From Bilabrum cf. latius (lineage: Eukaryota): a DNA stretch of 64,000 nt. A program made the position numbers and the translations under genes. A model generated the notes under the pieces. The model saw nothing but the letters and a program-made list of their open reading frames with translations. It did no database searches and was not told the origin of the DNA. The stretch spans positions 620,001 through 684,000 of the forward strand of contig OZ237735.1 in assembly GCA_965178125.1 (NCBI GenBank), written 5' to 3'. Shown one piece after another: positions 425 to 26,541 of this stretch; position 1 is the stretch's first letter; each line of letters opens with the position of its first letter.

Positions 425-437
425 ACTATATAATATT

Positions 438-1328
438 ATGAGTCGTAATATTTATTTAACTGGACAATCCAGTGGAGCAAATGGGGCAGCTTCAATTGCT
501 CGTGTAAATGTAAATAGACAAACAGATATTATAAGTGATACTACGGGATGGTTAATTTCAGTAGAACGCTTAATTATGAATAAAATTCTTCTACCCTTAT
601 TTGATCCAAACGCAAATAAACCCACTATATCATTTCAAAATATTAGTTCTGGTGTCGTAACTTCTGAGGTTGTTGATTTTTCGGCATTTGATGACCAAGA
701 CGGATATATTTATGATTATAGAGATGTCGCCTCGGCAATATCAAATACATTTAGTTCTTTATGTTCAACTTTAAGTATTGCAGATGTTCCCATAATGACA
801 TTTAATGTATCAACAAATAAATTTGAAATTGTTTCGGTTGGTGCTTTTAGATCTGCTTGGAAAATTGGATTTAATAATGATCTATTTACTTACATGCCAT
901 CTTTTAATTATGAATCTGTTTTATCATCTCCTTATTATATTGAACTGGCAGAAGACAGAGAAACACAATATACAAGCACACTTGAGCTTATGTCCCCTGT
1001 TTCTAGAATTGTAATTAAATCGAATCTACCAACTGAAAACGAACTTTTACCTCCCCCAATTAACCAATCTGATGCAATCGCTGGATCTTCAGACAGTGCG
1101 GGTTTTCTAGTCGACTTTGATGTCCAACAGTCGAATAATCAGTCTGTTTCACTTATAAAATATAGTGCAAGAGATACTGACCATATATGGCACAATTTTA
1201 AAGAGTCTAGAAATATTAATTCATTCTATCTAGATTTTTATTGGTTTGACTATAATAATGTTGGTCATCCAATCGCATTAAATAAAAATTCACAAATTGA
1301 TATAAAATTATATTTTGTACAACAATAA
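438..1328 (+). CDS. Minor capsid (penton) protein
   Basis: 296 aa, beta-rich, immediately upstream of MCP as in mavirus; TCTA promoter; ends TAA. Confidence 0.75.
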   Translation: MSRNIYLTGQSSGANGAASIARVNVNRQTDIISDTTGWLISVERLIMNKILLPLFDPNANKPTISFQNISSGVVTSEVVDFSAFDDQDGYIYDYRDVASAISNTFSSLCSTLSIADVPIMTFNVSTNKFEIVSVGAFRSAWKIGFNNDLFTYMPSFNYESVLSSPYYIELAEDRETQYTSTLELMSPVSRIVIKSNLPTENELLPPPINQSDAIAGSSDSAGFLVDFDVQQSNNQSVSLIKYSARDTDHIWHNFKESRNINSFYLDFYWFDYNNVGHPIALNKNSQIDIKLYFVQQ

Positions 1329-1398
1329 TAAAAATAATATAAGTTTTAATAATCAATTAGACAAAAATATAATAATTTTTTTCTAATGTTAATTTATT

Positions 1399-3189
1399 AT
1401 GTCAAAATACTATAAAGATGTGGTCGTTATGATGCCATCAAACGAGAAATTTAAAGAGCCAAAAGACGTGATGTTAGGGGCAAGAGCCTCTAATTCTGAG
1501 TCTATAAGACGTGTTATTCCAGCCAGTAATGGCTCACCTGATAAAGGTCAAGCAGGAACAATTGAATTTAATTATAATTTCCCTAAGGGTGTGCAATCTG
1601 TGCCACAACTTCAGGCAGAGCTCACATTGACATTAAGAAAAATTAATAGCGAGGTGATTGCCGATAATAAAGCGTTATTTGGTAAATTCGGAATTAGACA
1701 ATTCGCATTAAATAGACTTATTGATAATGCCAAGGTAGAAATGAATGGGCACGAGTTCAGCTCCAGACCATCACAAACAACAGAGTGTTTTGTAAATTCT
1801 CAACCATTGTCTCAATTGATGCGTTTGTCTGATGCTCCAGCTGGTCAATTTATGACTACCTACACAGATAAATTTATTAATAACTCATTGCGTGAGGGTG
1901 CAAATGCTGTTGATACCGTTTCATCTAACGGGCTCGGGAATAACTGGACTTTCTCAGATGTTGCAGTTACTGCAGATGGTGCAGGTTTTGTAAAAGTTGC
2001 ATTAAAAGTTATCTATAGAGAGGTTATATTAGCTCAACCTTTCCAATACCATAACCCCAATCCAGTACCCTTTAGAAACCTAAAGGACTTCAAGTGTCAA
2101 TTTGACATTAAGGCATTGACTGGCTTGGTTGGTGACTTTTTAGTTGCTGACACAACAGCAGTTGACGCTACAACCACCGTTGAATGTACATCTTCTAAAT
2201 ATAGTTTACTTGTGCACACATGGAATCCAAGCTTAAACCCAATCATTCCTGAAGAAATCGTATATAATGCACCCGAAGTAACTAAGTTGGTTTCTCAATC
2301 TCAAAATATTGTATCTGGTGGTACTGTTACCCAAAGAACAATAGAAACAAGCACATTTGTACTTAATAGTGTACCTACTGCACTTTTCATATATGCTAAA
2401 AGAGAAAAACTAACCGATGGTTTAAGTTATGGACAACCTGATGAATACGCATCAATTAAAAACCTTTCTATCGGAACAGCCCAGAAAGAAGACATCTTTA
2501 GTAACTACACGCAAAGCCAACTTTATGAAATGTCAGCGTCCAACGGATACAACGAAAGGTACGCAAAATTTTCCCAGCAACAAGTGGGTGATGGTATATT
2601 CGGGCTTGGTTCAGTGCTAATTATTAAGCCTTCAGACATTCCTGCGGCATCTCAACAAGCCTTTATTAGTCACGCAAACGAGACATTTACTATGAAAGTT
2701 AAAACTCTATTGGATTGTCCAGTAACTGGAAATTATACACTTAATGTTCTAGCATATTATGACGATCTTGTTTTATTCAATGAAGGTGACAATGGCACTT
2801 ATAAATCTATGAGACCTCTCATTTCTGGTGAAGTATTATCTAAAGCACCCGTTGTATACTCTGAAAATACCGCTCAAGATAACCATATTGTCGGTGGTTT
2901 CTCCTTTAGAGACCTAGGAAACAGCGTTTGGTCAGGCCTTACATGGCTTGGTCGTCAATTACAAAGACCAGAGGTTAAAGCAGTATCTAGAACCCTAAGA
3001 AATTCAGGTCTTGCCCCTCAGGTAGCCGACGGCTCAGCAATTGGCGATTTTGTTTCTAGATTTGGTTATGGAAAAGGTAAGAAAACCACAAAGAAAGGGG
3101 GTGATTTACTAAACATTGGTTCAGGCAAAAGCAAAGGAGGTAAAAAGCTAAGCAAAGCCCAATTAAAAAAAATGCTTGACCAAATGTAA
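1399..3189 (+). CDS. Major capsid protein (double jelly-roll, virophage type)
   Basis: 596 aa, size and position typical of mavirus-like MCP; IVGG di-glycine motif ~96 aa from a basic C-terminus. Confidence 0.85.
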   Translation: MSKYYKDVVVMMPSNEKFKEPKDVMLGARASNSESIRRVIPASNGSPDKGQAGTIEFNYNFPKGVQSVPQLQAELTLTLRKINSEVIADNKALFGKFGIRQFALNRLIDNAKVEMNGHEFSSRPSQTTECFVNSQPLSQLMRLSDAPAGQFMTTYTDKFINNSLREGANAVDTVSSNGLGNNWTFSDVAVTADGAGFVKVALKVIYREVILAQPFQYHNPNPVPFRNLKDFKCQFDIKALTGLVGDFLVADTTAVDATTTVECTSSKYSLLVHTWNPSLNPIIPEEIVYNAPEVTKLVSQSQNIVSGGTVTQRTIETSTFVLNSVPTALFIYAKREKLTDGLSYGQPDEYASIKNLSIGTAQKEDIFSNYTQSQLYEMSASNGYNERYAKFSQQQVGDGIFGLGSVLIIKPSDIPAASQQAFISHANETFTMKVKTLLDCPVTGNYTLNVLAYYDDLVLFNEGDNGTYKSMRPLISGEVLSKAPVVYSENTAQDNHIVGGFSFRDLGNSVWSGLTWLGRQLQRPEVKAVSRTLRNSGLAPQVADGSAIGDFVSRFGYGKGKKTTKKGGDLLNIGSGKSKGGKKLSKAQLKKMLDQM

Positions 3190-3255
3190 ATAGATTAATT
3201 TTATTGTATTAATTAAAAGATTTTAATTTAGATTTATTTCTAAACTAAAATTATT

Positions 3256-4433
3256 ATGACTCCTCCACTTTCGAAAGAACAAAGGGAAATTTTAAGTAAT
3301 ATATATTATGATGAACATTTTTTATTTGGTCGTGATAAATTATATGAATTAGTTAAATCAAGAGGTTACGATATAAGCAGACGACAAATAATGAACTGGT
3401 TAAAATCTCAAGAAAACTATCAATTATACAAACCAATTAAACAAAAGAAAACAGTTCAAGCAACGGTATTAAAAAGACCTTATGAGCAGTTTGCAGTGGA
3501 TTTAGTAAATGTCCAAGATATCGAAAAAATAATAAAAAGTACTTGTTAACTGGCATAGACCTTTTTAGTAAAGAGGGTTTCGCATTTCCTATTAACAATA
3601 AGAAAAAAGAAACCGTATCAAAAGCATTAAAATTAATGATTGGACAATTAAATAAAAAACCATCAATTATTAGATCTGATAATGGGAGTGAATTTAAAAA
3701 TTCGGTTATGACTAAAATGTTAAAAAAAGAAGGAATAAAACAAGTATTCAGTAATCCCTATTCACCCGAGTCAAACGGTGGTATTGAACGTTTTAATGGT
3801 ACTCTAAAACGCATGATCAATAAGTCTTTACAGCTTAATAAAGATTGGGTTAATCTTATTTGGGATCTTGTAGATGCTTATAATAATTCTAAATCAAGAA
3901 TAACTAAATTTACGCCAAATGAAATTATTAAAAATAAAAAGTTATGGGAACAGGTTTATAAAAATACTAGAAAAGAAGCAAAAAATAAATTAGTGAATGA
4001 AAGTCATATATTAAAAAAAGGGGATAAAGTAAGAATGGCAAACCTTGAGGATAATTTAAACAGAGGTCAAAATTTCAGTAAAATAATATATGAAATTCAA
4101 GAAGTATACAAACCAAAGAAAACTTATAGTGTGCCTTCATATAAAATTAAAGGATTAAAAGGTAGATATTATAATGAAGATCTGCAAAAAATTAAATATG
4201 TAATGAATGAGCAAAAAGAAGAACAAAAATGGGTTATTTCAAAATTACTTAAACCTACATACAGAGATGGCGAACCTAGTTATTATGTTCTATGGAAGGG
4301 TTATAAAACGCCTACAATAGAGCCAAGAAAGAATTTAATGGAAGATGTTCCTAAAATGGTTAGAACTTATGAACGTTTATATTCTGTGAAATGGTATCCA
4401 AAAACTGAAACCTTTGACTTTGATTTAAGATGA
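3256..4433 (+). CDS. rve-family DDE integrase with C-terminal chromodomain, split by a 1-nt frameshift at ~3524-3529
   Basis: FAVDL (D1) lies in the first frame; IRSDNGSEF (D2) and SNGGIERFN (E) lie in the second. Chromodomain-like YYVLWKGY...EP. Adding one A to the A6 run joins the frames (EKNNKKYLLTGID). Confidence 0.9.
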
Positions 4434-5366
4434 ATTCAATTTATTCATGCAATTTAATAATATTTTTATTTGTTCCTGTTTTGACTTATCATTAATCATT
4501 GATAATATGGCGTCTTCTGGTTTTTTATCATTATTATTAGATTGACAATATTTAGTATATGTTAACATTTGAGTGCTTGGTGAATTTCCCATAACACGGG
4601 CTAAGTCTTCTCTTTCATCATTAGTAAATAATGTTCCTTTATTCATTTTCTCACTAATATAAACATTTCTAAAATCATTAATAGAAACTTTATTTTTAAA
4701 AATCTTGTTTAATATTTTTGTTATACTGGATTGGTCATTTTTTTTATTTGGATTCTTAAATGGAGATAAAACATATTCACATTTATATTTTTCTTTAAAA
4801 TGCTTACAGTAATATATTATACTATCTGGAACTTTAATATATTTGACACCATTTGACTTTTTAGTTTTATGATCGTATATGTGGAGCTCTTTTTCATCTA
4901 GTAATAATTTATTTTCTTCTTCGTGGTTGTCAGTATCTAATATTTTCGTTGTTAACCATTCCGTGACTCTAAGAGGTGGCATATATGCGTAAAGAGATAA
5001 AAGCCATGCTCTATATTCATTCATTTTATTATTATTGCCTCCTTCAATTTCTTTTAATTTCTTTTCAATATCAAAATATTTAAAACCTTTGATATGTTCC
5101 TTGGCATTTTTATTATAATATTTGTTGTTTTTTTTCAATTCAATTAATTGTTTATTTAATGTTTCATCATAATGTTTATTTATTGCCTTACAAACTGTTA
5201 TATATTTATGTAAAAAACTAGATTGGTTACTTTGTGGTACATCTTTTAAGTATTCCATTATTGGTTTATCTTGTTTCTCTATTTTTTCATAGATTCTAAT
5301 ATAATCATTTATGCTTTTTTCGGCAAGATTGGGCTTTATATTTTGTATTTTTTCATAAAAAGACAT
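4425..5366 (-). CDS. Tyrosine recombinase-like protein
   Basis: PPLRVTEW (R), HKTKK (K), INDFRNVYIS, LARVMGNS...LTY (catalytic Y) pattern. Confidence 0.75.
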   Translation of the reverse strand: MSFYEKIQNIKPNLAEKSINDYIRIYEKIEKQDKPIMEYLKDVPQSNQSSFLHKYITVCKAINKHYDETLNKQLIELKKNNKYYNKNAKEHIKGFKYFDIEKKLKEIEGGNNNKMNEYRAWLLSLYAYMPPLRVTEWLTTKILDTDNHEEENKLLLDEKELHIYDHKTKKSNGVKYIKVPDSIIYYCKHFKEKYKCEYVLSPFKNPNKKNDQSSITKILNKIFKNKVSINDFRNVYISEKMNKGTLFTNDEREDLARVMGNSPSTQMLTYTKYCQSNNNDKKPEDAILSMINDKSKQEQIKILLNCMNKLNSS

Positions 5367-5428
5367 TCTTTATATAATATATGCTTATATAAAAAATATT
5401 GTTTAAATGCGTTTTAAACTGTTAATAT

Positions 5429-6085
5429 TTATGTTTTTTTTGTGTGGCAAGAATAACAGCGATAATAATTAGAATCCTTTTTTATTGTGTACTTATTACA
5501 ATCAATGCATTTTTCTTTTCCTGTTTTCTTTGTCATGTAACAATCAAAACATCTTAATTTATATTGACTTTTCGGTATCCAATCCCTACAATCTAGACAT
5601 TTTTGGTTATATTTAAACATCATATTATTTTCTTGGTGTTTATCACTTTGACAATGTGTCACATATGAACCTCTTTTTAATACAGAATCGCATTTTTCAC
5701 ATTTTACGAGCATGGTGTTTTTGTGCACTGATGAATTCATTGGAAATAGCCCAGTTATGCATGTACTACCAATCATAAAATATTTTTCTGGTTTTTGCTT
5801 TTCAAATACTAAATAAGGATATTTTAATTGCTTACCACATACACAAAAATATGTGGTCTCCATTCCTTGCTCATTTTTTTTTGATAAAACCAAGTTTCGT
5901 TTGTAATTATAGCATTGCTTGTAAAGTTTTTTAGCCATGCTCTTAATTTCTTTTTCAGATGTCATATTATTGTAATTAATAGAATCGAAATTTTCAGTAT
6001 CAAATTTTTTATCTGAATTTTTCTCAATATAATCTAAACACTTTTTGAGACAAATAGTTTTATTATCTTTTGCTTTTTTACACAT
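5429..6085 (-). CDS. Cys-rich multi-zinc-finger protein
   Basis: CVCG...GSTCI, CEKC...HCQSDKH and four further CxxC pairs. Confidence 0.7.
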   Translation of the reverse strand: MCKKAKDNKTICLKKCLDYIEKNSDKKFDTENFDSINYNNMTSEKEIKSMAKKLYKQCYNYKRNLVLSKKNEQGMETTYFCVCGKQLKYPYLVFEKQKPEKYFMIGSTCITGLFPMNSSVHKNTMLVKCEKCDSVLKRGSYVTHCQSDKHQENNMMFKYNQKCLDCRDWIPKSQYKLRCFDCYMTKKTGKEKCIDCNKYTIKKDSNYYRCYSCHTKKT

Positions 6086-6112
6086 GTATATTGATACATA
6101 CGAAAAAAATGT

Positions 6113-6330
6113 TTAAGTGGTTTCAGTATTTTTTATACCTTTTTTCCTTCTAGTTTGTGCGTTTTCTCTATTGATTTTTCTTAATTTTTCTTTATGTGCT
6201 TCATAATAACGTTTATTCTGTATCCTTTTTAGTTCCTGTTTACTTGGTGAATATTCAAACTCTTTTAATTGTTCCAGAGTAATGTTAAGTTTTTTTAAAA
6301 TATCACTATCAAGATCTATAATGAACTTTT
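6113..6330 (-). pseudogene. Small basic virophage ORF (~72 codons) decapitated by an Ngaro repeat insertion
   Basis: Open frame KFIIDLDSDILKKLNITLEQLKEFEY...KNTETT-TAA with no ATG. Its TCTA promoter (tatctatactaaattt on - strand) lies on the far side of the insert at ~6505-6520. Confidence 0.6.
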
Positions 6331-6499
6331 TGATCCTAACGCCGGATGGGGTTCGGTGTTGATGCCAGAGTGGGAGCGCGTGAACGTCTCGTTGGGTTCC
6401 GATGGCGGTTGCGACCGGGAAGGTGCGACCAAGCCAACGGATTGCTTGCGATGACGCGCATACCCTCTCTGTGTTCAGGAGAGGGGCGGAGATTGGGTA
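6331..6499 (+). repeat. Solo (3'-truncated) A repeat of the Ngaro element
   Basis: Matches 19204-19372 and 25532-25700 (tgatcctaacgccggatgg...gattgggta); no B repeat follows. Confidence 0.95.
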
Positions 6500-6542
6500 C
6501 TTTTAAATTTAGTATAGATAATTTTTTAAGTATATTAAGTAT

Positions 6543-9044: not shown

Positions 9045-9192
9045 AATATATTATATAATTCTATATTATTTTTATTATTTTAAGTGCGTTTTTTCTTAAA
9101 AATACACTTAAAAAACTTAAAAGGTGACATTGAATATTTGAATTAAAAAATTTGTCATTCATAAAAAAAGTATAATAGTATCCTAATAATGG

Positions 9193-9484
9193 TAATGCTA
9201 ACGCCGAATGGGGTTCGGGGTTGATGTGGCGATGCGTTCGAGACTCGAACACAGGCTCCGGTCTACCAACGCGAGGTTGCAACCGCCAGTGCGACCAGCA
9301 GCTTGCGAGGCATTCCCTCGTCTCCTTCCTTAGGGAAGGGGGCGGGGCAGCGCGGCAGTGGCCGTTCCGGCTCATGCCGTTGTTTTGTTCCAACCGACGT
9401 CGGCGCGCGGTCTGCTCAGATTGGCCATGCTTTGCCCATGTCTTGATTGAACTGGAGACGAAGTGTGTCGAGTAAGCATCGTTA
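9193..9484 (+). repeat. Solo A-B repeat of a second, diverged Ngaro family (ends approximate)
   Basis: GC-rich island. Its start ctaacgccgaatggggttcggggttgatg resembles the A-repeat start; its end ttgcccatgtcttgattg...gagac...gcatc resembles the B-repeat end. Confidence 0.7.
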
Positions 9485-9561
9485 CATCATTATTATATAA
9501 AATATTTAGTATTAATATTAATTTAATTTTAATTATCCCTCTATATTACTTTTTTTTGGAA

Positions 9562-9678
9562 AGGGTGACAAAAGCGGTGACAAAACGTGATTTTTGAGGT
9601 CTCAGAAAATTTTATTTTTTGAAATCATATTTTTATTGGACTTGGAAATTCTGATTTTGTCACCGCTTTTGTCACCCT
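9562..9678. repeat. 24-bp perfect inverted repeat with tandem GTGACAAAA units; internal diverged copy of a TIR segment
   Basis: agggtgacaaaagcggtgacaaaa (9562-9585) / ttttgtcaccgcttttgtcaccct (9655-9678). The whole module is similar to the reverse complement of 26558-26672. Confidence 0.9.
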
Positions 9679-9686
9679 AAAATATT

Positions 9687-10250: not shown

Positions 10251-10288
10251 TAATATAAATAATGACTAGAAAATTATTCAAACTTTAT

Positions 10289-11350: not shown

Positions 11351-11443
11351 ATTATAATTTAGTATAGATAATATTTATATAATAGAAAATATTTTTTGAA
11401 TTTGACAAAAAAAGAAAGGTAGTCATGCAACAATTTTAAAATG

Positions 11444-12307
11444 TTATTTAATTAAACGCTTGAATGCCTTAATTTCGTTTTTAACGTCATTTGTGATATA
11501 AGAATGTAATTTTTTCATAACTTCTTTTTGTATTTTACTAATATTTTTCATTTTAAAATCTGATTTCTTAAGATCCAAATTAAACATATTCTTTAATCTG
11601 ACCATTAAATCTTCCTTTATGTTGTTCATCACAAAGTTTTTAGTTGCCGTTGTATCTCGTACATTTTTAAGTGCTTCAAGTCTTGCATTAGTAAGATATA
11701 AAAAACCCACATTGTCAGAACTTAACAAACTATTAATTTCTTCCATTTTATCGTCGTATCCTGTTCTTCGGTATATCTCACGCAATCTCTTAAGGGCTTT
11801 ATAATATTTTCCTTCTTTTTCCAATTTCATGGCGTCTTCTATTAAATCTTCTGTTATTTCATCTTTAGTTTTTCCCATAATTGAATCACCAAAATCATAA
11901 ATTATCGTAACCTCTTCATAATACCCATTAGTAAATACTATTAAATCAAGTTTAACCCATTTTTTATCTTGTTTAATATACTTTGGGTTTTCTAGTTCAT
12001 CAGCAAGTAATTTGATAGCTTTTCTTTGTGTTCCTGCTTTCTTTTTACCTATTTTAAGTTCACTAACATCTATGTGATCACCAATGTCAATTAGAAAGCT
12101 GAATAGTTCACGTAAAAGCAGTTTATATTGTTTCATTTCTAATTTCATATATAAATCGAGATCAGAAGCAAAAAATGAAATAGGGAAAGAACCATTTAAT
12201 AACATATCTGCATCTTTTATTAACATAAGATCTTTAAACAATGCGGAATGGTCAGTATTAAATAGTTTGATGGTTTTATTGTTAATTTCCATTATATAGA
12301 ATAACAT
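11444..12307 (-). CDS. Putative Pol-beta-superfamily nucleotidyltransferase
   Basis: LLNGSFPISFFASDLDLY (GS...DxD) and a candidate third Asp in WVKLDLIVF, followed by a helical C-terminus. Confidence 0.5.
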   Translation of the reverse strand: MLFYIMEINNKTIKLFNTDHSALFKDLMLIKDADMLLNGSFPISFFASDLDLYMKLEMKQYKLLLRELFSFLIDIGDHIDVSELKIGKKKAGTQRKAIKLLADELENPKYIKQDKKWVKLDLIVFTNGYYEEVTIIYDFGDSIMGKTKDEITEDLIEDAMKLEKEGKYYKALKRLREIYRRTGYDDKMEEINSLLSSDNVGFLYLTNARLEALKNVRDTTATKNFVMNNIKEDLMVRLKNMFNLDLKKSDFKMKNISKIQKEVMKKLHSYITNDVKNEIKAFKRLIK

Positions 12308-15855: not shown

Positions 15856-15886
15856 ATATAAATTTTTTTTCTAATAATATAGTATT

Positions 15887-16459: not shown

Positions 16460-16519
16460 TTAAATATTAGTTATAGATAGAACAATAAATTAATATTTTT
16501 TTTCTAATATTAATTTATT

Positions 16520-17188
16520 ATGAAATATACAGTTAACGAATATTTGGACCTTATAGGTTCTGGAAAACCTAAACGTAAAAACTCTAAGGGAAAACAAACC
16601 AATGAACATAAAGAACATGTACAAGCTGTAATGGAACTTTTCGGAATGGGTAAATCTCAAGCTGATAAATTATGTTATGAATGCGAAGAGAATGCAAGAG
16701 TAAAAGGTGGCTCATTTTGGAAAAACTTGCGTAGGGGTCTTTCCAGAGTTGGTAATACCGTAAAACGTGGAGTTTCTAAAGTTGGCGATGCAGTAAAAAG
16801 GGGCGTAAGAGATCTTAAAAATATGGATACTGATGATGTTCTTTATTCTTTGGGTAAAGTAGCAACGAGTCAGATACCATACGTAGGAGCTTATGCTACG
16901 GAAGGCTTAGATGCATTACAACATCACAGAAAATACAATGCTAAAAAGGCAAGTAAAAACGCTTTAATTGATGTTGGTACTTCCTTTTTACCTCCAGGTG
17001 TTAGACAAGTTAGTAATTTTGCATTAAAGAAAGCCACGAAAGGTATGGGCAAAAAAGCTACAGGAGGTAAGAAACGTAAGGTATCACAAAAGATGAAAGA
17101 ACGTGGAGCTATGATAAAAAAGATTATGAAAAATACTGGAATGAAACTAGGAGAAGCATCAAAATTCCTAAAGGAGCACGGAAAGTAA
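16520..17188 (+). CDS. Basic virion core/membrane-lytic-like protein
   Basis: Lys-rich; VKGG-SFWKNLRRGLSRVG amphipathic segment after a di-glycine motif. Confidence 0.6.
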   Translation: MKYTVNEYLDLIGSGKPKRKNSKGKQTNEHKEHVQAVMELFGMGKSQADKLCYECEENARVKGGSFWKNLRRGLSRVGNTVKRGVSKVGDAVKRGVRDLKNMDTDDVLYSLGKVATSQIPYVGAYATEGLDALQHHRKYNAKKASKNALIDVGTSFLPPGVRQVSNFALKKATKGMGKKATGGKKRKVSQKMKERGAMIKKIMKNTGMKLGEASKFLKEHGK

Positions 17189-17245
17189 TAAATACGAATG
17201 AATTTTATTCTATTTTTATTAAAGAATAGATTAAAACTATTTGGA

Positions 17246-17527
17246 TCAATTCAAAACATCAGTTTTATAAACTGGAATAACTCCATATTTTTCTTTATAT
17301 TTTGTTTCAAGATTATTTAGTCTTTTTTCTAAATTGACCCTTGCATATCTTAGATTATCTTGTAATCGGTTATGATGTCCCATGGAATCAGAAGGTAGAT
17401 ACATAAATTTTAAACCACCACGTATGAAATCACTTAGATCATTTAATTCGTTATGTATATTTTTTAATTTTAATATTAGTCTTCGTGCTCTTTGAATTTT
17501 TCCGTCTAAACATTTTCTATGGTTCAT
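17246..17527 (-). CDS. Hypothetical protein
   Basis: 93-aa ATG ORF in AT-rich DNA, divergent from the next gene. Confidence 0.55.
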   Translation of the reverse strand: MNHRKCLDGKIQRARRLILKLKNIHNELNDLSDFIRGGLKFMYLPSDSMGHHNRLQDNLRYARVNLEKRLNNLETKYKEKYGVIPVYKTDVLN

Positions 17528-17537
17528 ATATATTCAT

Positions 17538-17849
17538 ATGGATATTAAATTATTAAATATTAAACCATCTACAAGAAAGAATAAAAGATTAATGGCAACA
17601 TTTAAATTAACTAAAAAAGGTTATGAACCAAAACAATATATTGTGCATTTTGGGGCTAGAAATGGAAAAACATACATAGACCATCAAGATAATAAAAAAA
17701 AAGTCAACTGGCTAAAAAGACACAAATACTATATAGAAAAAGCTGATTATGTCCCTTGGTCTGCTCCTGTGTTAAGCTGGAGAATATTATGGTCAAAGGA
17801 CAATTTAAAGGATGCAATAGATAATTATAGAAAGACTTATAATTTATGA
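17538..17849 (+). CDS. DUF5754-like small basic protein (common in NCLDV/virophages)
   Basis: PSTRKNKRLMA...VHFGA...YIDHQD...WLKRH pattern. Confidence 0.65.
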   Translation: MDIKLLNIKPSTRKNKRLMATFKLTKKGYEPKQYIVHFGARNGKTYIDHQDNKKKVNWLKRHKYYIEKADYVPWSAPVLSWRILWSKDNLKDAIDNYRKTYNL

Positions 17850-17879
17850 GAAACAAACTTTAAGAAAAATCTTATTGAA

Positions 17880-18500
17880 ATGTATATGTCAATGTTGAGT
17901 GATCTCCTCGATAAAAACACAAAAGATAGACAACAGGATCAAATATTTGTAGAATGTTATATAGGTTCAAAAATTACCCCACTATTAAGACTTCGTAAGT
18001 TTTTAATGGAACGTTATCCTCCTGAATTCTTTAAAAATGGAATTATTAAAAAAGACTTATTAAATTTACATAACACAGTAAATCGTATCAAGAAAGAGAG
18101 AACCGAATTATTATCAATCATATATGAAAAATATAATAAACTAACCAAAAATGAAAAAAGGAAATTAAGATGTCAAATGCCACTAGATTATAAAAAAATA
18201 TTCAAAAATGAACCAATACTCGTAAATCGAAAGTTTACAAGTTTTAGAAAACCATTAATTGATTATATTCAAGAATATGTAAATATGGATTTTATAATGA
18301 GACTTGAAGACGATATCGATGAATATCTATGGGGAAAACCCCTTGATGAGGTTATTGACCATTTAAATGAGAAATCTAATAAACATCTAGAAAAGTTATA
18401 TTTATGGCAACTGAATAAAAAAGAGATAACGGGCTTTATGAAAGTTGAAATAGAATTTAGAAGAATGCAAGAAGAAATTTATATAACCACTCATTTATAA
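17880..18500 (+). CDS. Hypothetical protein
   Basis: 206-aa ORF in AT-rich DNA; ends TAA. Confidence 0.7.
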   Translation: MYMSMLSDLLDKNTKDRQQDQIFVECYIGSKITPLLRLRKFLMERYPPEFFKNGIIKKDLLNLHNTVNRIKKERTELLSIIYEKYNKLTKNEKRKLRCQMPLDYKKIFKNEPILVNRKFTSFRKPLIDYIQEYVNMDFIMRLEDDIDEYLWGKPLDEVIDHLNEKSNKHLEKLYLWQLNKKEITGFMKVEIEFRRMQEEIYITTHL

Positions 18501-19203
18501 ATCCGTAAAGTTCTTTAAAGCATGTACATTAAAATAATTATTCTTTTTATGAGGGCTGGTATAAAATGTCACTTGATCAGGATTCATAAATTGGGCTAAA
18601 TTATGACTTACAGGGTCGCCATCTACAACATGATATTTAATATTACCAATGTTAAATTTAGGGTCTCTTATCATTTCAAAATTTAAAGCTGGATTAAATG
18701 AATGTCCTTTAATTTCTTTACCGTATTTTTTAGTAAGATATGCAACCATCCCAGAACCCAGTGAGTGAGAAGCAAAAGAAATATTATGATCTGGAAAAGC
18801 TTGTTTGACAGCTTCATAAATATCAACTAGATCTTTAAAGTTTTCACTTTTATCTAGTGTGCCTTGTGCTATCTTTAAATCATCCATAACGTCCGATCCG
18901 TCAACTGTACCCCTAACTCCAATAATGATATTTTTATTTTTAATATAAATTTTTCTTCTATCATCTTTAAAGATTACACGATAACCGTCTATTATATCCC
19001 TTTGTTTAGTCTTTGGGTATGTTTGACGTGCAATTTTAGCGTGTAATTTAGCTTCCTTACTTAATTGCTGTAGTTTCTTATTTCTTCTTGTTAAAAATCT
19101 ATAAGTTCCCACGGGTACATCTTTAATAAATTCCCAGACATTCCCGCCCTTTACTCGTTTTTTTAAAATTTGTATAATTTCTTTTTTTGTCAATTTATTT
19201 TTT
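18495..19203 (-). pseudogene. Class-3 lipase/alpha-beta hydrolase, interrupted in codon 2 by Ngaro (first 5 nt ATGCC at 25868-25864)
   Basis: IGVRGT, ASHSLGSG nucleophile elbow, DGDPVS, C-terminal H. Removing 19204-25863 restores ATG CCA AAA AAT AAA TTG ACA. Confidence 0.85.
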
Positions 19204-19379
19204 TGATCCTAACGCCGGATGGGGTTCGGTGTTGATGCCAGAGTGGGAGCGCGTGAACGTCTCGTTGGGTTCCGATGGCGGTTGCGACCGGGAAGGTGCG
19301 ACCAAGCCAACGGATTGCTTGCGATGACGCGCATACCCTCTCTGTGTTCAGGAGAGGGGCGGAGATTGGGTAATTTTTG
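19204..19379 (+). repeat. Ngaro repeat A1
   Basis: Matches A2 (25532-25707). Confidence 0.95.
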
Positions 19380-19407
19380 AAGAAAGTTCCTGCTCCGTTC
19401 ATTTAAC

Positions 19408-22400
19408 ATGAACAGCGCCGGTAGCCATCGGATCGACCCGGCGGCGCGCGGGGCAGCAGGCAGCGCCAGGGTGATCGCCGCAGCTGCAGTGTTCGCTCGC
19501 GCGGTAGGCCAACCTGCGGTCACGTTGGCCGATTTAGCTACTCGATATGGTATGAATGATGCTGTGTTCTCGGATTTCATTGCTCGTCTCAACGTGCAGC
19601 GCGACACCATGGCACCTCGCGATCCCGATCTTCGACGTTCACACGATGCGGGGTTCCTGTGCTACTTGCTCGACAGGTACTCATCAAAGCAGTCCTTTAC
19701 GGCATCACGGTCCATTAATGCTGTCAAGAGCACCGCTCTCGCCAGGTTCGTGTCAAATGGGACGCTAACGACTCTCGGTGCACGGCTGCTTCTGCCGGCG
19801 TCGCCGAGCTCTCCTCGACGGCAACAGCCTGAGCGACTCGCAGGACAAGTACATCTTCATCCTGTTCAGCAATCTCCAGAGGCTCCTTCTTCAATCGAGT
19901 CTCCATGGTCCCTGAGTTCACTACCGACGGGCCGGGGGACAGCTTCTCTTCGCGGACAGCATCGGCCACCAGGACGCCTCGACTTCGGCGCCGCCATCCA
20001 TGCTTCACCTGGACGCGACCGAGCGGCGTAGAGTGCCACCAGGACAAGCCGCGGAATTTCGCCCTTGCGGGCGCGGCCAGGCTCTTCGACGCGGCCGACC
20101 CCGCTCGCGCGGGGCGGGCGGGCCCACCTGCACGAGTCCCCGAACCGAGGGCCCCCGGGGACAGCAGCAGATACCCAGCGCAGCGGCCAGCCCAACTTCT
20201 CAACGTCTTCACCCCCGCGGCACCAACCTCCACCTGCCTCGGGCAGGCTCCCCGGTAGGCCAGGCACTCGGGACTTCGGCGATCCGACAGTGCTCGCGGA
20301 GGCGCTCAGCAGTGCAGCATCACGGTCAACGGGCCCGGCAGGCCCTCAGCTTCTTCTTCCTCGTGTGTCTCCGGCTTATGACTCCCCCGGCGTGACTCCG
20401 GGAACCAGCCGCTAGCTTGATGCGGTCTGGGGCCGCCTTCCTGGGGATCTCCAACGGGCAGTGTTGCACTCCACGACGCTGCGGGGAAAGGCCGACCCAG
20501 CGACAATTCTGCATCTACGCCTGTTTGCGCTGTGGCACAGCATTCCGACTCTACGCCAGCAAGAGCTGCTGTCGCACCTCTCCGCCCACGTGGAATTACA
20601 ATGGTACTTCTAGCACCGACTGGCAGCTTCGATGCACTCATCCCCGCCACCGGTCGACGTTCTACCCGCTCATCAGCCTCCCCGTGAACCTCCTGTCTCA
20701 TCTTCTGCCTCACCGCAGCCTGCGTCTTCAATTGACCCAGTTTCACCGGGCGCAGGCACGGCAGTGGACTCCGCGGTCGGTCGCTCGCAACCAGTGGAGA
20801 ATTTGTAGCGTGAGGCCTCTGCACCTTCAATCGCTGCAATTCGAATGCAGAATTGGTTTTCTGATGATTTCTTGGCAACGTTGACCTCGATCTTTCGCCA
20901 ATCCGCGTTCATGCCGCGGTTTTGCTAGGCTGACGCGCTTCATTTGGACGCTAGCGGCCGCGATTTCGCTGCCGAACTGGCCCGTGCCCTGTTTGGTCAG
21001 GCTGTGACGAGAGCCAAGATTGAATCGGCTATTTTCTCGTTCACGAGCCGGCTTCATGCAGCTCTGCCGATGAGCAATGCTAGTTTTGGGGAGTTTGATG
21101 CGTCCAACTCGGAGTCGTCTGCTGCAGGCGGACGAGACAAGTAGGTACCATCTAGCGAGTTACTATGCACTATTTACTCGGCTATTTCCTTTGCTTTAGG
21201 CTGTGTGCTTGTGCGGGCTGCTTGCGTGAATTCGACGGCGTCCTTGCCGTCCTGGTTGCCGCAGGGCAGCAGCTCGTGGTAGTGTCCAGCATCACTAGTG
21301 CCCGATTGGAAAACCTTAGGGCAGGTTCGCAATGATTTTCTTCGTTTAGTTAGTGCTTCCGGGGCATCATCTGCATCGGCGTCCAGACTAGAGGTGGTGT
21401 TTGCCGCTGTGTGTGTGATACCACGCGGAAGTTCAGCTTTTGAGATGCTCTCATCCCATGCTTGGCGCCATACAGGCGAACGCTGTGACGTTGAGATTCG
21501 TGACCTTGTTGGGAATGAGATTCCATCGTGCTCTTCTGGCGACTGCATGCGTCTCCTACAATTGCTGCATCCGTGGGCCACTGAGGCATGCAGATCAGGC
21601 GAACCTGGCCTCGTGCGCGGACTGCTACAGGGAGTCCAGGCTGACATGCAGGCGCCGTCCCGTCGAGCAGCACTGTCCCGTCACTTCGACCCCCGCGGGG
21701 GCAGTGGAGGCCGGGGCAGTGGAGGCGGGGGCAGTGGAGGCTCCAGGCGCAGCGGGGGTGACAGCGACCAGCCCAGTGCCGATCGTGGCGGAGGTCGACA
21801 CCGTCGAGGCCGTGGACGTGGCGGTGCAGGCCAGCAAGGTGGCCAGCACCAGCGTGCGGACCGGCAGGACGGGGGTTCCACCAGGAAGTCCAAGGAGCCT
21901 TCACCTGACCCCCCCCCACGAGGTACGTCACGTCAGAGCCAGCCCAGCACTCCAACACCAACACTGCCGCAGGGGCGTACGCAGACTACCACCACATCGG
22001 ACGCGTGTGCTGCTTCCACACCACCTGTCACGTCAACGCCCGCGCTTCACCCAGTCCTGGTGGCCCTAGCGCGCCCTAAGCGACCGCAGCGGCCGCCCAC
22101 GGCGTCATCCACGAGGCTGCCAGGTAGGACGGACATCTCTCCAGCATTCGTTGACTGGGCATATCCAGCTCCGGATCCAAGCCATGAGTGGGCAGGGACG
22201 ACAGCACCCTCCGTCGAGGACTTCATACAGCGAAAGGACGATCACCAGCGTATCAGAGAATGTCCCGGCGAATTCGTGGAGGCTCCAGCTGCGACGTGGG
22301 ACCGTGAGCGGCTCCACCTGAAGGTTCACGACGACCCGCTGGCATTCACGCCACGCAAGTACTTCGACAAGGTGCCTCGCTAGACTGCAACACTGCGGAC

Positions 22401-25167
22401 CCGGCGGGAGGTTCTGTTTGGCGGCCGCACACCGAGGAAGGCCCCGTCCCTTGCCGAGTTTAAAGCCCTCCCACGAGTCGAGCGTGTACTGGCAGCACTG
22501 AACTATGGTTGCCCCCTAGCCATCGTGGACGAGGTGCCCAAAGAGCACGATCTAGACTACAAGGACCGTAAGCTGTCTCCGGAAGAAAAGTGGGAGATCG
22601 CCTGCGAGATCGGGCGCTCCATGCGGGCTGGCGAGCGTGACTTCGTGTCACCCAAAGATTTCGACACAGCCCGGGCCCGGCCGCTGGTGATCCCCAAGAA
22701 GGACTCGACAAAGCTACGGTTCCTTCAGGACTCCTCACTCAAGGTGAACGGCCAGCGTACCGGTCTGAACAAGGCCATCGACTACAGTGCAGCCACGCCT
22801 GTGCAGCAGACGAGCAGCATGGACGTGCTGCGCTCGGCAGCCGCAGCAGTTCGATCCTGCCCCAAGCGTGCCAGCGGATACGTCGTCGACATTTCCTCGT
22901 ACTTTCGGGTCCTGCCGGTGGCAGTGGAGGATCTCCAATACAACCTGATCAAGCTGCCCGACGGGCGCATCGTGCAAGATTTCAGGCTCTCTATGGGCAG
23001 CTCATCATCTCCCGCCTTCGCAACTACGATCAGTTCGGCTTTGGCCCAAGCCCTCGAGGAGCAGTCCATTGGCAGGGCCATGCGACCCGGACGGAGACAC
23101 AAGCAGAAGCAACGACGCCGGAAGCAGCAGCACGCCAACGCCCAATCCAGCACGACGGACCAGGCGCCCCAGGCGAACTCGTCAGCAACGTCCACCCCGC
23201 CTGCCGCTAGCACGACAACGGGACATGTCAAGACGGCCCAAGACTAGTCCCGCCATTGGTAGGTCGAAAATGAGGTGTTTGTAGATGACTTTGCCTGCCT
23301 CGGCGGAGATCACGAAGTCGATGCATGGGCAATTCGAGCCATGGGGCAGCTGGACTCCACAAACTTCCCCGTCAGCATCTCGAAAGCATTGAAGCAAGGG
23401 GCCCCAGCCCCGGTGTTCGAGTACTTGGGCCTCACCTACGACTTGATCAAACACGAGGTGCGGTGCCCTAAGGACAAGGCCAACGACGTCCTGCGCAGAC
23501 TGCACGAGGCACTCACGACGAAGGGGATGCTACTGTCTAGCTTTGAGACCTTGGTCGGCAAGTTGTCCTTCCTGTCGGGCGCACTTTATGGTATGCGCGG
23601 TGCTCTACGTCCCCTGTATGACGCCAAGGGCTGGGCCCTTCACAAGTAGGCCAGCCGGTCACGACCAGGTGAGGTGTGGGTCCCCACCTCCTTTGTGTCC
23701 AAGGGTGGCTTCACAGTTGGGGAAATCCTCGAGGGATTCCAGGTGGCTATCCAGCGCAAAGGCGGGCGCAGCTTTCCGATGCGGGGCACCATTGACTGTC
23801 CCATCCTTCGCACTGATGCGTCGGTGACAGGCTACGGCGCCGAGCTGCTTCTCCACGACAAGGACGGCAACATCACTTCGCACACCGGCATCCAGGGCAC
23901 TTGGCCGCATCGCCTAGAGGCGAAGGATGTAGCGGCGGCAGAACTTGCAACATGTTTGTTGGCACTGGCGCATTGGCGACAGCACCTGCGTGGACGTGTG
24001 GTGCGTTTGTGGTGTGATAATGATGCTTCCGTGTAGCTGATACGCTACGGCAGACCCAAGAGCCACATCATGGCAGCCTTACTTCGCCCTATCTTCGTAC
24101 TGCAGACAACGCAAGATGTGCAGATTCACGTGAAACACATTCCTGGCGAGGACAACGTCGTTGCGGACGCTTTGAGCCGCGGCTCACAGGAGGCATACAC
24201 GCACCTGGACGCGGTGTATCAGGTCGACTGTCCCACGCCGATCTGGAACACCTTGTACAAGCACGACCATTTCACGCTGGTGGCCACTCTGGACTCAGTG
24301 GGTTGCGCACGGCGTGGGGGCACTTCGACAACTTCCTCACGTGGTACGACATCGACCGCAGTTTCATGGACGGGCATCTTCCAGCAGCTCGCAGACTCTT
24401 CGCGTTCAGGCTCAATGCAGCGCTCTCGAGATTCGCAGTCTTCTTAGGGGAATGTTCGCCTCTCAGTGGCGGCACCATCGCTACATACACCAGAAATGCC
24501 TAGCGAGTCGTCATCGAGTCCACAGGAGCGTGCGGCGTCCCACGGTCACGCTAGCTCGACAGCATCCTCCGGTACTACCACAAAGCATCGCCATCGGCGC
24601 ACCCGTTGCGTCGATCTTCAGCCCCACTCCGCGCAATCCGACGGTGTTTCTCGACAGCCGGTTGCAGCACAACAGAGTAGGCTGCTCGGACAGCTGTCTG
24701 TCTCTGCTTCTGTGGGGGCCTCCGGCTGGGAGAGCTCGTCGGTGCGTCCAGACGACAAGCCGGCCTCCAATGGCAGCAAGTGCAGTTCATCACGCGAGAC
24801 GGACGCATCCATGGTGTTGCCATCCGCCTGGGCCTCCACAAAGCCGACGGCCCAGCCAAGTTCTCCATCCCAGCCGCAGAGCCCATCGCAGTCCATTGCA
24901 GAGCCGGACGATGGGCAGTCACAGGCAGCAGGTTCTGCGGCGTGCGAGCCTTCGTGGCGTGGGCAGCAGCGAGCCACGCCCCAACTGCAGGCGCAGACGA
25001 AGACTACGCCCGGTAGCTGGCGCTCAGCTGCCCCACGTCAGGGCCAGTCTTCGTGGCGAACACGAAGCCGATCGTCAAGGCGCAGGTAGTACGGGCGCTC
25101 CGCAGCTTCTGCTCACGAGAAGTTGCAGGAGCGGTGCACGGACATTCCATCCGCATCGCGGCAGTGA
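19408..25167 (+). CDS. Ngaro Gag-like/RT/RNase H polyprotein, 1919 aa if TAG=Gln
   Basis: One frame with 14 TAGs and no TAA/TGA until TGA 25165-25167. RT motifs VVDISSYF, LSMGSSSSP, FVDD, YLG. RNase H motifs TDAS, AAAEL, WCDN, HIPGEDNVVADALSR. Confidence 0.85.
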
Positions 25168-25361
25168 TGTGTTTGGACCGTGCTGGGGTCGCCTTCGAGG
25201 TCATTAGGCGATTTGGCAGATGGAAGTCGGCATCTGCATGCGAGGTGTACTTGCGGGGCGTCAGGGAAGGCTTGCCTCCTCTGGAGCTCGGCGGCAGGAG
25301 CCTCGATTTGAACAGGCCAGTGTGGGTGCTGGCCAGCGCGCTGCGGCTGAACTTGGAGTGA
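24303..25361 (+). CDS. Ngaro tyrosine recombinase (start uncertain; frame open from ~24024, first ATG 24366)
   Basis: With 4 TAGs read through: GGLRLGEL (R), HKAD, HGHSIRIAA (HxxR), FGRWKS...VYLR (Y); ends TGA. Confidence 0.85.
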
Positions 25362-25401
25362 GCCACACAGCCGCAGCGTACAAGACATGGCGGTAAGATT
25401 T

Positions 25402-25863
25402 GGCGGAGTAGTGCACGTGCTCTTCCCAGCCCCGGTCAGTCCGGTCAAGGGTCGCGCACAGGCACAGCTTTGTCAGGTCTTGCCATGTCTGATTGTTAAC
25501 GAGACTAGGTTGCGCGTACACTCTGGCATCATGATCCTAACGCCGGATGGGGTTCGGTGTTGATGCCAGAGTGGGAGCGCGTGAACGTCTCGTTGGGTTC
25601 CGATGGCGGTTGCGACCGGGAAGGTGCGACCAAGCCAACGGATTGCTTGCGATGACGCGCATACCCTCTCTGTGTTCAGGAGAGGGGCGGAGATTGGGTA
25701 ATTTTTGCCCACCCTCCCAACCCCCTCCTCCTCGGCGGAGTAGTGCACGTGCTCTTCCCAGCCCCGGTCAGTCCGGTCAAGGGTCGCGCACAGGCACAGC
25801 TTTGTCAGGTCTTGCCATGTCTGATTGTTAACGAGACTAGGTTGCGCGTACACTCTGGCATCA
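25402..25863 (+). repeat. Ngaro B1 (25402-25531), A2 (25532-25707), C-rich spacer, B2 (25734-25863)
   Basis: B1 matches B2 (130 bp) and A2 matches A1, by direct comparison. Confidence 0.95.
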
Positions 25864-25914
25864 GGCATATATAAGTTAACATAATAAAAAAAAATATCTA
25901 ATGTTATATATATA

Positions 25915-26541
25915 ATGGCTTTAGAAATAGCTATTTCATCAGTAAGCGGAGCTTCGGCTCTAGTAGCATTAGGCTATTATGGGGTGTCCTGCATGGGCAA
26001 GGTAAAAAAAGCATTTGACATTAAGAAGGCATGTCTTGTAATTCCCAAGGGATGCGGAAAGACTACATTGTGTAAGAAATTTGAAGGAAATGACACGAAT
26101 CTTTTAGTCGTAGACCTTGACGAATTGGTATCAAAGCATCCAGATACGGACAAATCTTTTTTAGAAGGATTAGAAAAAGCTAGGGAGTCAGGCGATGACT
26201 CAACATATAGGGTATTATATCAAGAACTGGCAAAGAAAGTATACGAATCATTAAAAAAATCATGGTTAACAAAAAAAGAAAAAAGAATGTTGTGTTTGAC
26301 TGGATCATTAGAACTAGCCCAAGAATTATTTAAAAAAACTAGTATTTTCGTTGCCTCACCATCAAATAAATTATTTAAGGATCTTGTATATGAAGCAACA
26401 AATGAAGTACAAGAAGTAATGAGAAGAGAAAGAACAAATTTAATATCCGAACTGCAACCCTCTCAAATATATGTTTATGACACATTCGAAGAGTTAAATG
26501 CAAAATTACAGCTCCAATTTAAAATTAAGCATCACCTTTAA
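25915..26541 (+). CDS. P-loop NTPase/kinase-like protein with hydrophobic N-terminus
   Basis: CLVIPKGCGKTTL Walker A, LLVVDLDE; TCTA promoter; the last 85 nt lie inside the TIR. Confidence 0.7.
   Translation: MALEIAISSVSGASALVALGYYGVSCMGKVKKAFDIKKACLVIPKGCGKTTLCKKFEGNDTNLLVVDLDELVSKHPDTDKSFLEGLEKARESGDDSTYRVLYQELAKKVYESLKKSWLTKKEKRMLCLTGSLELAQELFKKTSIFVASPSNKLFKDLVYEATNEVQEVMRRERTNLISELQPSQIYVYDTFEELNAKLQLQFKIKHHL

Follow-up and report, generated by a model that had tools for sequence, protein, structure and literature searches.

The window analysed here, a stretch of 64,000 nucleotides from the genome of a Cafeteria-related protist (a bicosoecid), opens with an endogenous virophage bounded by terminal inverted repeats (TIRs) of 1,003 bp that are 99.9% identical (Table 1). 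The element has the features of a mavirus-like endogenous virophage (EMALE type), namely a major capsid protein (MCP), penton, packaging ATPase, protease and rve integrase together with TIRs and a target-site duplication. Its capsid proteins match PDB 6g45 and 6g41, which we take to be mavirus proteins. No open reading frame (ORF) for a protein-primed DNA polymerase B (pPolB) was found among the window genes, and for this reason the element is not filed as mavirus or EMALE type 4. The late-promoter motif TCTA precedes 11 of the 17 window genes examined and turns up in 10% of background windows. An Rfam scan of positions 1-28000 gave zero matches, and the virophage contains no tRNA gene.

Table 1. 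Features of the virophage, its nested retrotransposons and the adjoining host DNA, in window coordinates.
Feature	Position	Strand	Evidence and remarks
Left TIR, inner end	1..117		TIR begins ~885 bp outside the window
Penton (minor capsid protein), 296 aa	438..1328	+	PDB 6g41, E 2.3e-45; TAA stop, no TAG
Major capsid protein, 596 aa	1399..3189	+	PF22031, E 1.7e-13; PDB 6g45, E 2.8e-55
rve integrase with chromodomain	3256..4433	+	rve, rve_3 and Chromo matches
Tyrosine-recombinase-like, 313 aa (lead only)	4425..5366	-	Atlas 0.97 to Preplasmiviricota clusters
Cys-rich protein, 218 aa	5429..6085	-	family search: no match
Solo A-repeat remnant, Ngaro family of 19200	6327..6504	+	99% identical; missing from C36 copy
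Primase-helicase, 833 aa	6543..9044	-	DUF5906, E 3e-14; phrog_1156 DNA primase, E 1.3e-19
A+B repeat remnant, second Ngaro-like family	9194..9490	+	45 matches in host assembly
Putative maturation protease, 187 aa	9687..10250	-	position and likeness; 49% identity, E 7e-55 to L109 gene
Packaging ATPase, 353 aa	10289..11350	-	Walker A GKSGSGKS, DD motif; 50% to L109
Conserved 287-aa gene	11444..12307	-	directly upstream of ATPase
Charged protein, 464 aa	12341..13735	+	family search: no match
Fibre-like gene pair, 682 aa and 190 aa	13807..16459	+	phrog_11338 tail fibre, E 3.2e-5
Four small genes	16520..18500		222 aa (+), 93 aa (-), 103 aa DUF5754 (+), 206 aa (+)
Lipase-like gene	18495..19202	-	alpha/beta hydrolase, E 0.005, weak; frame TAG-free
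Ngaro retrotransposon	19200..25863	+	RVT_3
Ngaro repeats	A1 19200-19377, B 25402-25531, A2 25528-25705, B 25734-25863	+	repeat comparison
P-loop protein, 208 aa	25915..26541	+	AAA_14, weak; stop falls within right TIR
Right TIR	26457..27459		terminates in 71-bp perfect palindrome 27390-27460
Target-site duplication CCGCC, 5 bp	27460..27464	+	identical 5 bases left of left TIR
Host BCS1-like reading frame	27428..31657	-	7 in-frame TAG; overlaps TIR

The MCP gene is TAG-free and ends in TAA. The integrase is split by a frameshift into ORFs at 3256-3549 and 3636-4433 and is a single 392-aa ORF in the other three copies of the element, on contigs C36, C21 and C40. For the recombinase-like candidate, PF00589 occurs on 16% of one Atlas cluster, and its own Pfam search gave no match. 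The putative protease, likewise without a Pfam match, has an L109 counterpart that sits between the ATPase and penton, and the 287-aa gene is placed like MV14 in EMALEs. The two fibre-like proteins have related N-termini. The lipase-like gene has its 5' end cut by the Ngaro insertion, and its frame is TAG-free as far as the junction; in the Ngaro itself TAG is sense, with 14 in-frame in the long ORF. The 297-bp remnant of the second Ngaro-like family is missing from the C36 copy. The palindrome of the right TIR has a folding energy of -37.2 kcal/mol (z = -15), and the BCS1-like frame extends into this TIR, so the element was inserted in the 3' end of the BCS1-like gene.

As far as the available part of the source describes them, the EMALEs of Cafeteria burkhardae share with the window element the MCP, penton, ATPase, protease and rve integrase, a length of ~20 kb, TIRs near 1 kb, a 5-bp target-site duplication, the TCTA promoter motif and nested Ngaro retrotransposons (PMC8547959). 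The integrase with a recombinase-like gene, the long primase-helicase and the lack of pPolB resemble EMALE types 5-7. The window element differs in its host, which reads UAG as Gln; in its low GC, since this gene set pairs with mid GC in C. burkhardae; and in its 71-bp terminal palindromes, the available part of the paper having no passage on palindromes or hairpins. Its main text mentions neither the genetic code nor UAG (PMC8547959).

The nuclear code of the host evidently reads UAG as Gln (table 15 type), judging by TAG at Gln positions, stops of TAA and TGA, and a CUA-anticodon tRNA at C23:907607 whose D arm resembles that of host tRNA-Gln. The host eRF1 gene has a TAG aligned with Q of PDB 8ip8, and in a sister virophage on contig C37, 13 of 28 TAG stand opposite Q and every other residue accounts for at most five. 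Eight host ORFs contain 4-20 in-frame TAG apiece. In an aminopeptidase of the host, which shares just 43% identity with C. roenbergensis, one of four TAGs lies opposite Q in the closest homologues and the remaining three fall in gappy or variable columns. Position 69 of eRF1 was considered as a code-linked change and rejected, as Q is also at that position in PDB 8ip8. A pattern search for further Gln tRNAs gave no matches, with the pattern overlooking the known CUA tRNA too; tRNA scoring covered 63 of 780 candidates. Another eukaryotic 18S is present in the host assembly; its contig (C95), 17.9 kb in length, has long ORFs that end in TAG.

Nuclear UAG=Gln with UAA as stop is described in Iotanema spirale, Protocruzia tuzeti and two phyllopharyngean ciliates; these cases share the reassignment and a dedicated CUA tRNA with the window host, and none of those in the available part of the source is a stramenopile (PMC11687900). 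Literature searches found no nuclear UAG=Gln case in bicosoecids or other stramenopiles. A UAG=Gln bicosoecid is apparently unreported and a larger novelty than the window element, as is the presence of both code-adapted and code-foreign virophages in one genome.

The window virophage region is AT-rich (GC 0.25-0.38 per kb; 0.306 for the element, with GC3 ~0.2). Among its 20 ATG ORFs one was dropped, leaving 19 that represent 18 genes, with the integrase in two pieces. Over 5,743 sense codons, Gln is written CAA 168 times, CAG 25 times and TAG never (0/193), and the stops are TAA (16) and TGA (3), with no TAG. This confirms the initial annotation, according to which about 18 virophage genes lack in-frame TAG and all end in TAA or TGA, and the contrast that it drew with host and Ngaro genes is also real. 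The dropped ORF, at 9061-9375 (-), ends in TAG and is spurious, as its start lies within the remnant at 9194-9490. Six further ORFs of 40-71 aa that end in TAG when read by the standard code either share their sequence with real genes or fall within a retrotransposon remnant. Calling ORFs with TAG as Gln gave the same gene ends, so the zero is not circular. Against the GC-matched sister on C37, sense TAG makes up 0 of 189 versus 47 of 199 Gln codons (Fisher p = 1.2e-15). Tandem back-up stops do not differ between the window element and C37.

The host genome has ~70 virophage loci, mostly UAG=Gln and many present as identical copies, with five standard-code immigrants. In-frame TAG occurs in 56 of 61 capsid matches and 65 of 74 ATPase matches, so neutrality towards the code is not host-wide. 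Three TAG users are matched to the window element in GC, namely C37 (GC 0.303), C9:670k (97/282 Gln codons, GC 0.323) and C14:305k (45/130, 0.316), which makes the window family a real outlier. The C37 sister, with structural genes as in the window element and TCTA upstream of 5 of 14 genes, reads TAG as Gln in 14 of its 18 genes. The reassigned codon is thus used as sense, as expected of a code-adapted endogenous virus, by C37 and most others and not by the window element. An unrelated TAG-free element at C9:349684-391642 (17 genes, no sense TAG) has in one gene a TAG stop at the exact end of the window homologue, overlapping the stop of a converging gene, and reads as a standard-code genome. 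TAG-free families number four copies and one, whereas the families that use TAG reach 15, 17 and above. A search of the host assembly for giant-virus capsids gave no match, and its control was likewise silent.

For stop codons, the baseline was taken from environmental virophages. TAG ends 3 of 65 genes in seven AT-rich loci and 16 of 46 in five mid-GC loci (p = 5e-5); the AT-rich baseline is small, with 65 stops from ORFs that were called mechanically, and it is from their frames that these loci are taken to use the standard code. L122, L124 and L125, near relatives of L123, were left out (4/92 with them included), as were L126, L127, L128 and L130 (overlaps or near duplicates) and L108 (GC 0.39, two stops). 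At this baseline, none in 19 has P = 0.41, and the direct comparison of 0/19 with 3/65 gives Fisher p = 1, at low power. AT-rich environmental virophages are thus equally poor in TAG stops. The absence of sense TAG is beyond chance, and that of TAG stops is within chance; the scarcity of TAG stops is compositional, and neutrality requires no selection. The caveat entered at the outset, that AT-richness explains the pattern, therefore holds for the stops and fails for the missing sense TAG, which GC-matched siblings use.

The four copies of the window family, on C1 (the window copy), C36, C21 and C40, lie on four large contigs and are 83-100% identical; C1 and C36 are 99.6-100% identical, and the C21 copy is a mosaic. 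Host-code Ngaro elements lie within every copy at sites that differ between copies, and three separate Ngaro events in the window copy suggest some residence time. Between C36 and C40, Leu codons differ as CTR/TTR at 34 of 67 C-bearing sites, while TAG stands at none of 28 CAG-bearing Gln sites (~14 expected), and among newly placed Gln codons TAG is 0 of 64, against 18 of 145 in the comparison with C37. These comparisons show that sense TAG was banned while the family diverged. All 16 of the C36/C40 gene pairs share their stop codon, which means that the copies cannot be counted as separate trials. The near-identical TIRs, the intact target-site duplication, the likeness of C1 to C36 and the few copies of the TAG-free families support the earlier suggestion of a recent arrival. 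Four such copies are explained as well by repeated traffic, or by replication in this host, as by single arrivals that proved dead ends. Sequencing run X5, from another study and under a different organism label, contains virophage pieces at a depth of 2-3 but no single-copy DNA of the host. These pieces agree with C21 and C37 alleles from the host assembly (difference counts 60/44/15); carry-over and free particles are equally likely sources, and no weight is given to the pieces.

In the capsid tree, from a later version of which L106 was left out, the three TAG-free members group together with support 46/58, C37 adjoins them, the next clade consists of four environmental TAG users, and the outgroups are TAG-free; monophyly of the TAG users has p-AU 0.095. 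The tree leaves the direction of change unfixed, and TAG loss from a TAG-using ancestor is compatible with it. TAG is found in four of seven metagenomic relatives; the environmental relative L105 has no TAG among six stops and no sense TAG. Another close relative, P0002, lies on a 10.4-kb contig and has a capsid of 63% identity. IMG/VR capsid searches with the window protein and an alignment, and a search of the phage collection, returned nothing, and a standard-code host with the window family was not found.

The reading we prefer, at a probability of about 0.6, is that a standard-code mavirus-like virophage family diverged in standard-code hosts, was recently and repeatedly integrated here, and passed the code barrier by chance. 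The family would have evolved with sense TAG forbidden, its hosts then reading UAG as a stop, and integration into a bicosoecid with UAG=Gln would have followed recently and more than once. With TAG stops seldom used by AT-rich virophages, an 18-gene genome would be ~40% likely to have none. The host code may act as a one-way filter, under which AT-rich standard-code virophages would be correctly read in this host, mid-GC ones (~1/3 of stops TAG) would suffer readthrough, and lineages resident in UAG=Gln hosts would accumulate TAG and become unreadable in standard-code cells; TAG content would then record host history. We infer the origin of the ban in standard-code hosts, the direction of transfer, the filter and the donor host of the window family, and the code of the window element is best read as a sign that it came recently from a different kind of host. 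Shuttling between hosts may also continue.

A selected two-code generalist, which would replicate by turns in hosts of the standard and the UAG=Gln code alongside a giant virus of broad host range, with selection purging TAG in both roles, is a less probable account, and its version with a shared giant virus and TAG perhaps purged from a TAG-using ancestor is similarly doubtful. Such a generalist would suit four copies without TAG stops, three distinct variants (C1/C36, C21, C40) in this host, the equally TAG-free L105, and a promoter type common to the window element and the TAG-using C37. Against it, TAG-stop scarcity lies at the compositional baseline and not below it, which gives no demonstration of selected neutrality; the shared stops deprive the copies of independence, the other TAG-free lineage (C9) retains a TAG stop, and the copies are few and much disrupted.

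Some giant viruses encode eRF1. A helper giant virus that restores UAG termination, through a release factor or tRNA depletion, and so obliges its virophages to avoid sense TAG would account for the TAG stop found in the C9 element and for the TAG-free state of the two lineages, and a 'peptide release factor' cluster is listed for virophages and PLVs of another bicosoecid (preprint 10.64898/2026.07.28.741278). This idea, also raised in the initial annotation as a giant virus altering termination, is improbable: C37 combines TCTA-type promoters with sense TAG, so at least one helper of that promoter class leaves UAG as sense, and an eRF1 family search of the host assembly brought up the host's own eRF1, a Pelota-like gene and nothing else. 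No release-factor match was found among the window genes, and element-borne suppressor tRNAs were rejected on the basis of the 63 of 780 tRNA candidates scored, the tRNA genes near several capsid loci being Met and Pro.

Composition alone, by which a native virophage would drift to CAA and TAA, accounts for the stops at this GC and is refuted for sense TAG: TAG and CAA are equal in G+C, TAG makes up 24-35% of Gln codons in the three native elements of matched GC, and the first-position bias of T over C (TTG:CTG 50:10) would have TAG outnumber CAG, as it does in C37 (47:17), whereas the window element has 0:26; it is very unlikely as a whole. An assembly artefact joining the virophage of a contaminating standard-code eukaryote to host contigs could draw on the second 18S contig and its TAG-ending ORFs, and is scarcely credible given four loci on four large contigs with exact target-site duplications and host-code Ngaro within every copy at different sites.

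Code adoption by endogenous viruses has a precedent in Streblomastix strix, whose Maverick-Polinton-like viruses use host code 6, a match read as long association and paralleled here by the TAG-using majority; code 6 assigns TAA as well as TAG to Gln, whereas here only UAG is reassigned and the elements are virophages proper, and the available part of that report mentions no code-foreign elements, whereas adapted and non-adapted sisters share one genome here (PMC10120064). A 2026 catalogue states that every confirmed giant-virus isolate comes from a standard-code host (PMC13524828). UAG=Gln virophages in many identical copies imply giant viruses infecting a recoded host, and among the five standard-code immigrants is one whose close sister is code-adapted. 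Standard gene calling fragments TAG-containing metagenomic virophages such as the four relatives above. The question of whether a variant genetic code protects its host against viruses is an old one, for which Shackelton and Holmes (2008) is cited in the same catalogue. By itself the code-neutrality of the window element is modest; a two-code generalist, if true, would give the first demonstration of a eukaryotic DNA virus bridging a nuclear code barrier, with its sisters locked in the recoded host. On the preferred reading of recent immigration, the barrier would follow a rule by which mid-GC virophages are stopped and AT-rich ones pass, and TAG frequency would be an internal record of host jumps.

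The window virophage carries a capsid gene (PF22031; PDB 6g45 match, E 2.8e-55), a penton gene (PDB 6g41 match, E 2.3e-45), and genes for an ATPase, a protease, an rve integrase, a primase-helicase, and a recombinase-like protein; no protein-primed polymerase was found among its genes. Its terminal inverted repeats (TIRs), 1,003 bp long, 99.9% identical, and flanked by a 5-bp target-site duplication, both end in a perfect 71-bp palindrome, a feature that, given the lack of pPolB, may hint at replication primed by hairpins. TCTA, the late promoter motif of CroV according to the accessible text of PMC8547959, precedes 11 of 17 window virophage genes against a 10% background. In this copy the integrase is broken by a frameshift, the 5' end of a lipase-like gene is interrupted by a full Ngaro retrotransposon, and two further Ngaro remnants are present. 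The insertion occupies the 3' end of a BCS1-like reading frame of the host, so that the TIR now supplies the final ten codons and the stop of that frame. The same Ngaro family (at least about 18 copies in the host assembly, G000) occurs in five of five TAG-free elements (window and contigs C36, C21, C40, and C9), at a different site in each; most copies of a second, Ngaro-like family are close to TAG-using elements.

The initial annotation described the virophage genes as free of TAG and ending in TAA or TGA, and this is real: the 19 ORFs of the AT-rich part (5,743 sense codons) encode Gln by 168 CAA, 25 CAG, and no TAG, and stop at TAA (16) or TGA (3). Gene ends are identical when ORFs are called with TAG as Gln; thus, the way in which ORFs were called does not account for the absence. 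The contrast drawn with host and Ngaro genes also holds, with 4–20 in-frame TAG in each of the eight host ORFs examined and 14 in the Ngaro ORF, and Pfam domains found in such frames of both. One ORF with a TAG stop was discounted, as it starts in a retrotransposon repeat remnant absent from the C36 copy.

For stop codons, the absence of TAG in the window family is ordinary AT-bias. Seven AT-rich environmental virophage loci end in TAG at 3 of 65 stops, a baseline at which 0 of 19 has P = 0.41, while five mid-GC loci do so at 16 of 46 (p = 5e-5); no deficit of the window element relative to virophages of matched GC could be shown. The lone TAG of the TAG-free C9 virophage, which is unrelated to the window family, ends a DUF5754 gene at the same position as the end of the window homologue, and it shares bases with the stop of a converging penton gene. 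It is thus a true TAG stop, and at least that lineage uses the ordinary standard code rather than being code-neutral. Nested in this element are a TAG-using virophage and a Ngaro.

The caveat that AT-richness alone might suffice thus stands for stops and fails for sense codons, since the TAG-using sister on C37 matches the window element in GC (0.303 vs 0.306; structural proteins 38–80% identical) and is rich in TAG (Fisher p = 1.2e-15). Code-neutrality is also no general trait of the virophages of this host, as siblings carry in-frame TAG in 56 of 61 capsid matches and 65 of 74 ATPase matches. The five TAG-free capsid matches are C1 (window), C36, C21, C40, and C9:385k; the nine TAG-free ATPase matches comprise these same five elements and four split-gene pieces with TAG in the other part, a pairing deduced except on C37. 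The C37 element shares the structural module of the window family and has a different replication module (helicase, integrase, a 620-aa polymerase-like protein recognized by motif only; TIR 487 bp), a premature TGA in its capsid gene, and an ATPase split by a Ngaro remnant. Some TAG-using virophages carry tRNA-Met(CAT), one also with tRNA-Pro.

Locations of features in the window and on contigs (C) or extracted loci (L), with TAG among Gln codons
Feature	Location	TAG/Gln codons
Window virophage, AT-rich part	window 1-19199 + 25864-27459	0/189-193
Full Ngaro	window 19200-25863	
TIR palindromes	window 27390-27460; L048:9115-9185	
TIR-derived end of BCS1-like frame	window 27428-27459	
Host region read with UAG=Gln	window 27428-62137	
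Discounted ORF	window 9061-9375	
Window family, other copies	C36	0/199
	C21	0/184
	C40	0/183
TAG-free virophage	C9:349684-391642 (L090-L094, L138)	1/200 (single TAG ends a gene)
TAG-using virophage nested in it	C9:355302-373024	67/219
TAG-using sister	C37:139537-160791 (L031-L033)	47/199
Other TAG-using virophages	C9:670k	97/282
	C4	105/262
	C5	74/349
	C3	91/343
	C14, two counts	45/130 and 35/96
tRNA sites in TAG-using virophages	C5:282086; C3:1096678; C3:1096994; C3:1133102; C9:698618	
CUA-anticodon tRNA	C23:907607-907679 (L050)	
Host eRF1	L079:1510-1899	
Mitochondrial contig	C111 (L049, L064)	
Contig with second 18S	C95 (L136, L137)	

The C36 copy is 99.6–100% identical to the window copy. 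Between C36 and C40, up to half of the four-fold sites of the capsid gene differ, and 34 of 67 C-bearing Leu sites show the first-position change CTR/TTR, yet CAG became TAG at 0 of 28 Gln sites (about 14 expected), which indicates that the window family diverged while sense TAG was forbidden. In C37, TAG:CAG (47:17) is near Leu TTG:CTG (38:7), as expected from long residence in recoded hosts.

Among seven metagenomic capsid loci, L102, L103, L106, and L107 carry one to three in-frame TAG within their capsid or penton genes; most of these codons align with Gln, so UAG=Gln virophages exist in metagenomes. The capsid genes of L104, L105, and L108 are free of in-frame TAG. In a capsid tree rooted on L104/L105, C37, the window family, and P0002, a relative whose code was judged solely from its full-length predicted protein, group together (support 85/91), apart from a clade of the environmental TAG users (100/99). 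The tree data do not reject a single clade of all TAG users (p-AU 0.095), and support for the TAG-free trio is 46/58. The simplest interpretation is an ancestor without TAG, and reversion of the window family from a TAG-using one is possible.

The host is probably a bicosoecid related to but distinct from Cafeteria roenbergensis, as that species supplies the top named homologue of one host enzyme (43% identity). Its UAG=Gln code is well supported by sequence, though not proven: there is a CUA-anticodon tRNA whose D arm resembles host tRNA-Gln, host ORFs stop at TGA (seven) or TAA (one), and 13 of 28 TAG of the C37 sister lie opposite Gln. An in-frame TAG of the host eRF1 gene aligns with Q in PDB 8ip8 but with L in yeast-type and human-type chains, and one of four TAG of a host aminopeptidase is opposite Q in two bicosoecid-like homologues, the other three falling in gappy or variable columns. 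In the eRF1, Val replaces Ser just before NIKS (TAVNIKS), a change that might be connected with losing recognition of UAG. A tRNA with a UCA anticodon on the mitochondrial contig fits the reading of UGA as Trp, the code of Cafeteria mitochondria; the accessible text of PMC6972860 mentions a non-standard code for C. roenbergensis only in mitochondria. A second eukaryotic 18S, sharing 83% identity with the main one, sits on a 17.9-kb contig that also has long ORFs with TAG stops; this contig is probably from a standard-code contaminant or co-cultured eukaryote.

The window element is thus a standard-code virophage with AT-biased stops. At a probability of roughly 0.6, its family would reside in standard-code hosts and spill over into the UAG=Gln host, where its genes would be read correctly by happenstance. 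Mavirus can enter and integrate without a giant virus, so integration in a recoded host is no proof of replication there. Selected shuttling between hosts of different codes is rather doubtful, as it predicts a TAG-stop deficit and none was demonstrated, and code-neutrality as an adaptation is unsupported. A helper giant virus overriding the reading of UAG, as the initial annotation offered in the form of altered termination, is very improbable, conflicting with a TAG-using sister of the same promoter type. Mis-assembly and a purely compositional origin can both be all but dismissed.

The kinds of components are already known: Streblomastix elements use their host's code (PMC10120064), giant-virus MAGs with other codes exist while isolates all come from standard-code hosts (PMC13524828), and known UAG=Gln eukaryotes are listed (PMC11687900), each per the accessible text. 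The main text of PMC8547959 mentions neither the genetic code nor UAG, and the accessible text of the Halocafeteria preprints (10.64898/2026.07.28.741278 and 10.64898/2026.06.25.734631) contains no code-related terms. In the literature searched, where subscription journals are sparsely covered, no report was found of code-mixed virophages within one genome, of a UAG=Gln bicosoecid, or of nuclear UAG=Gln in a stramenopile. What is new is a recoded host holding both adapted and foreign virophage sisters, through which the question of a code barrier becomes testable; UAG=Gln in a Cafeteria-related host probably outweighs the virophage observation in importance.
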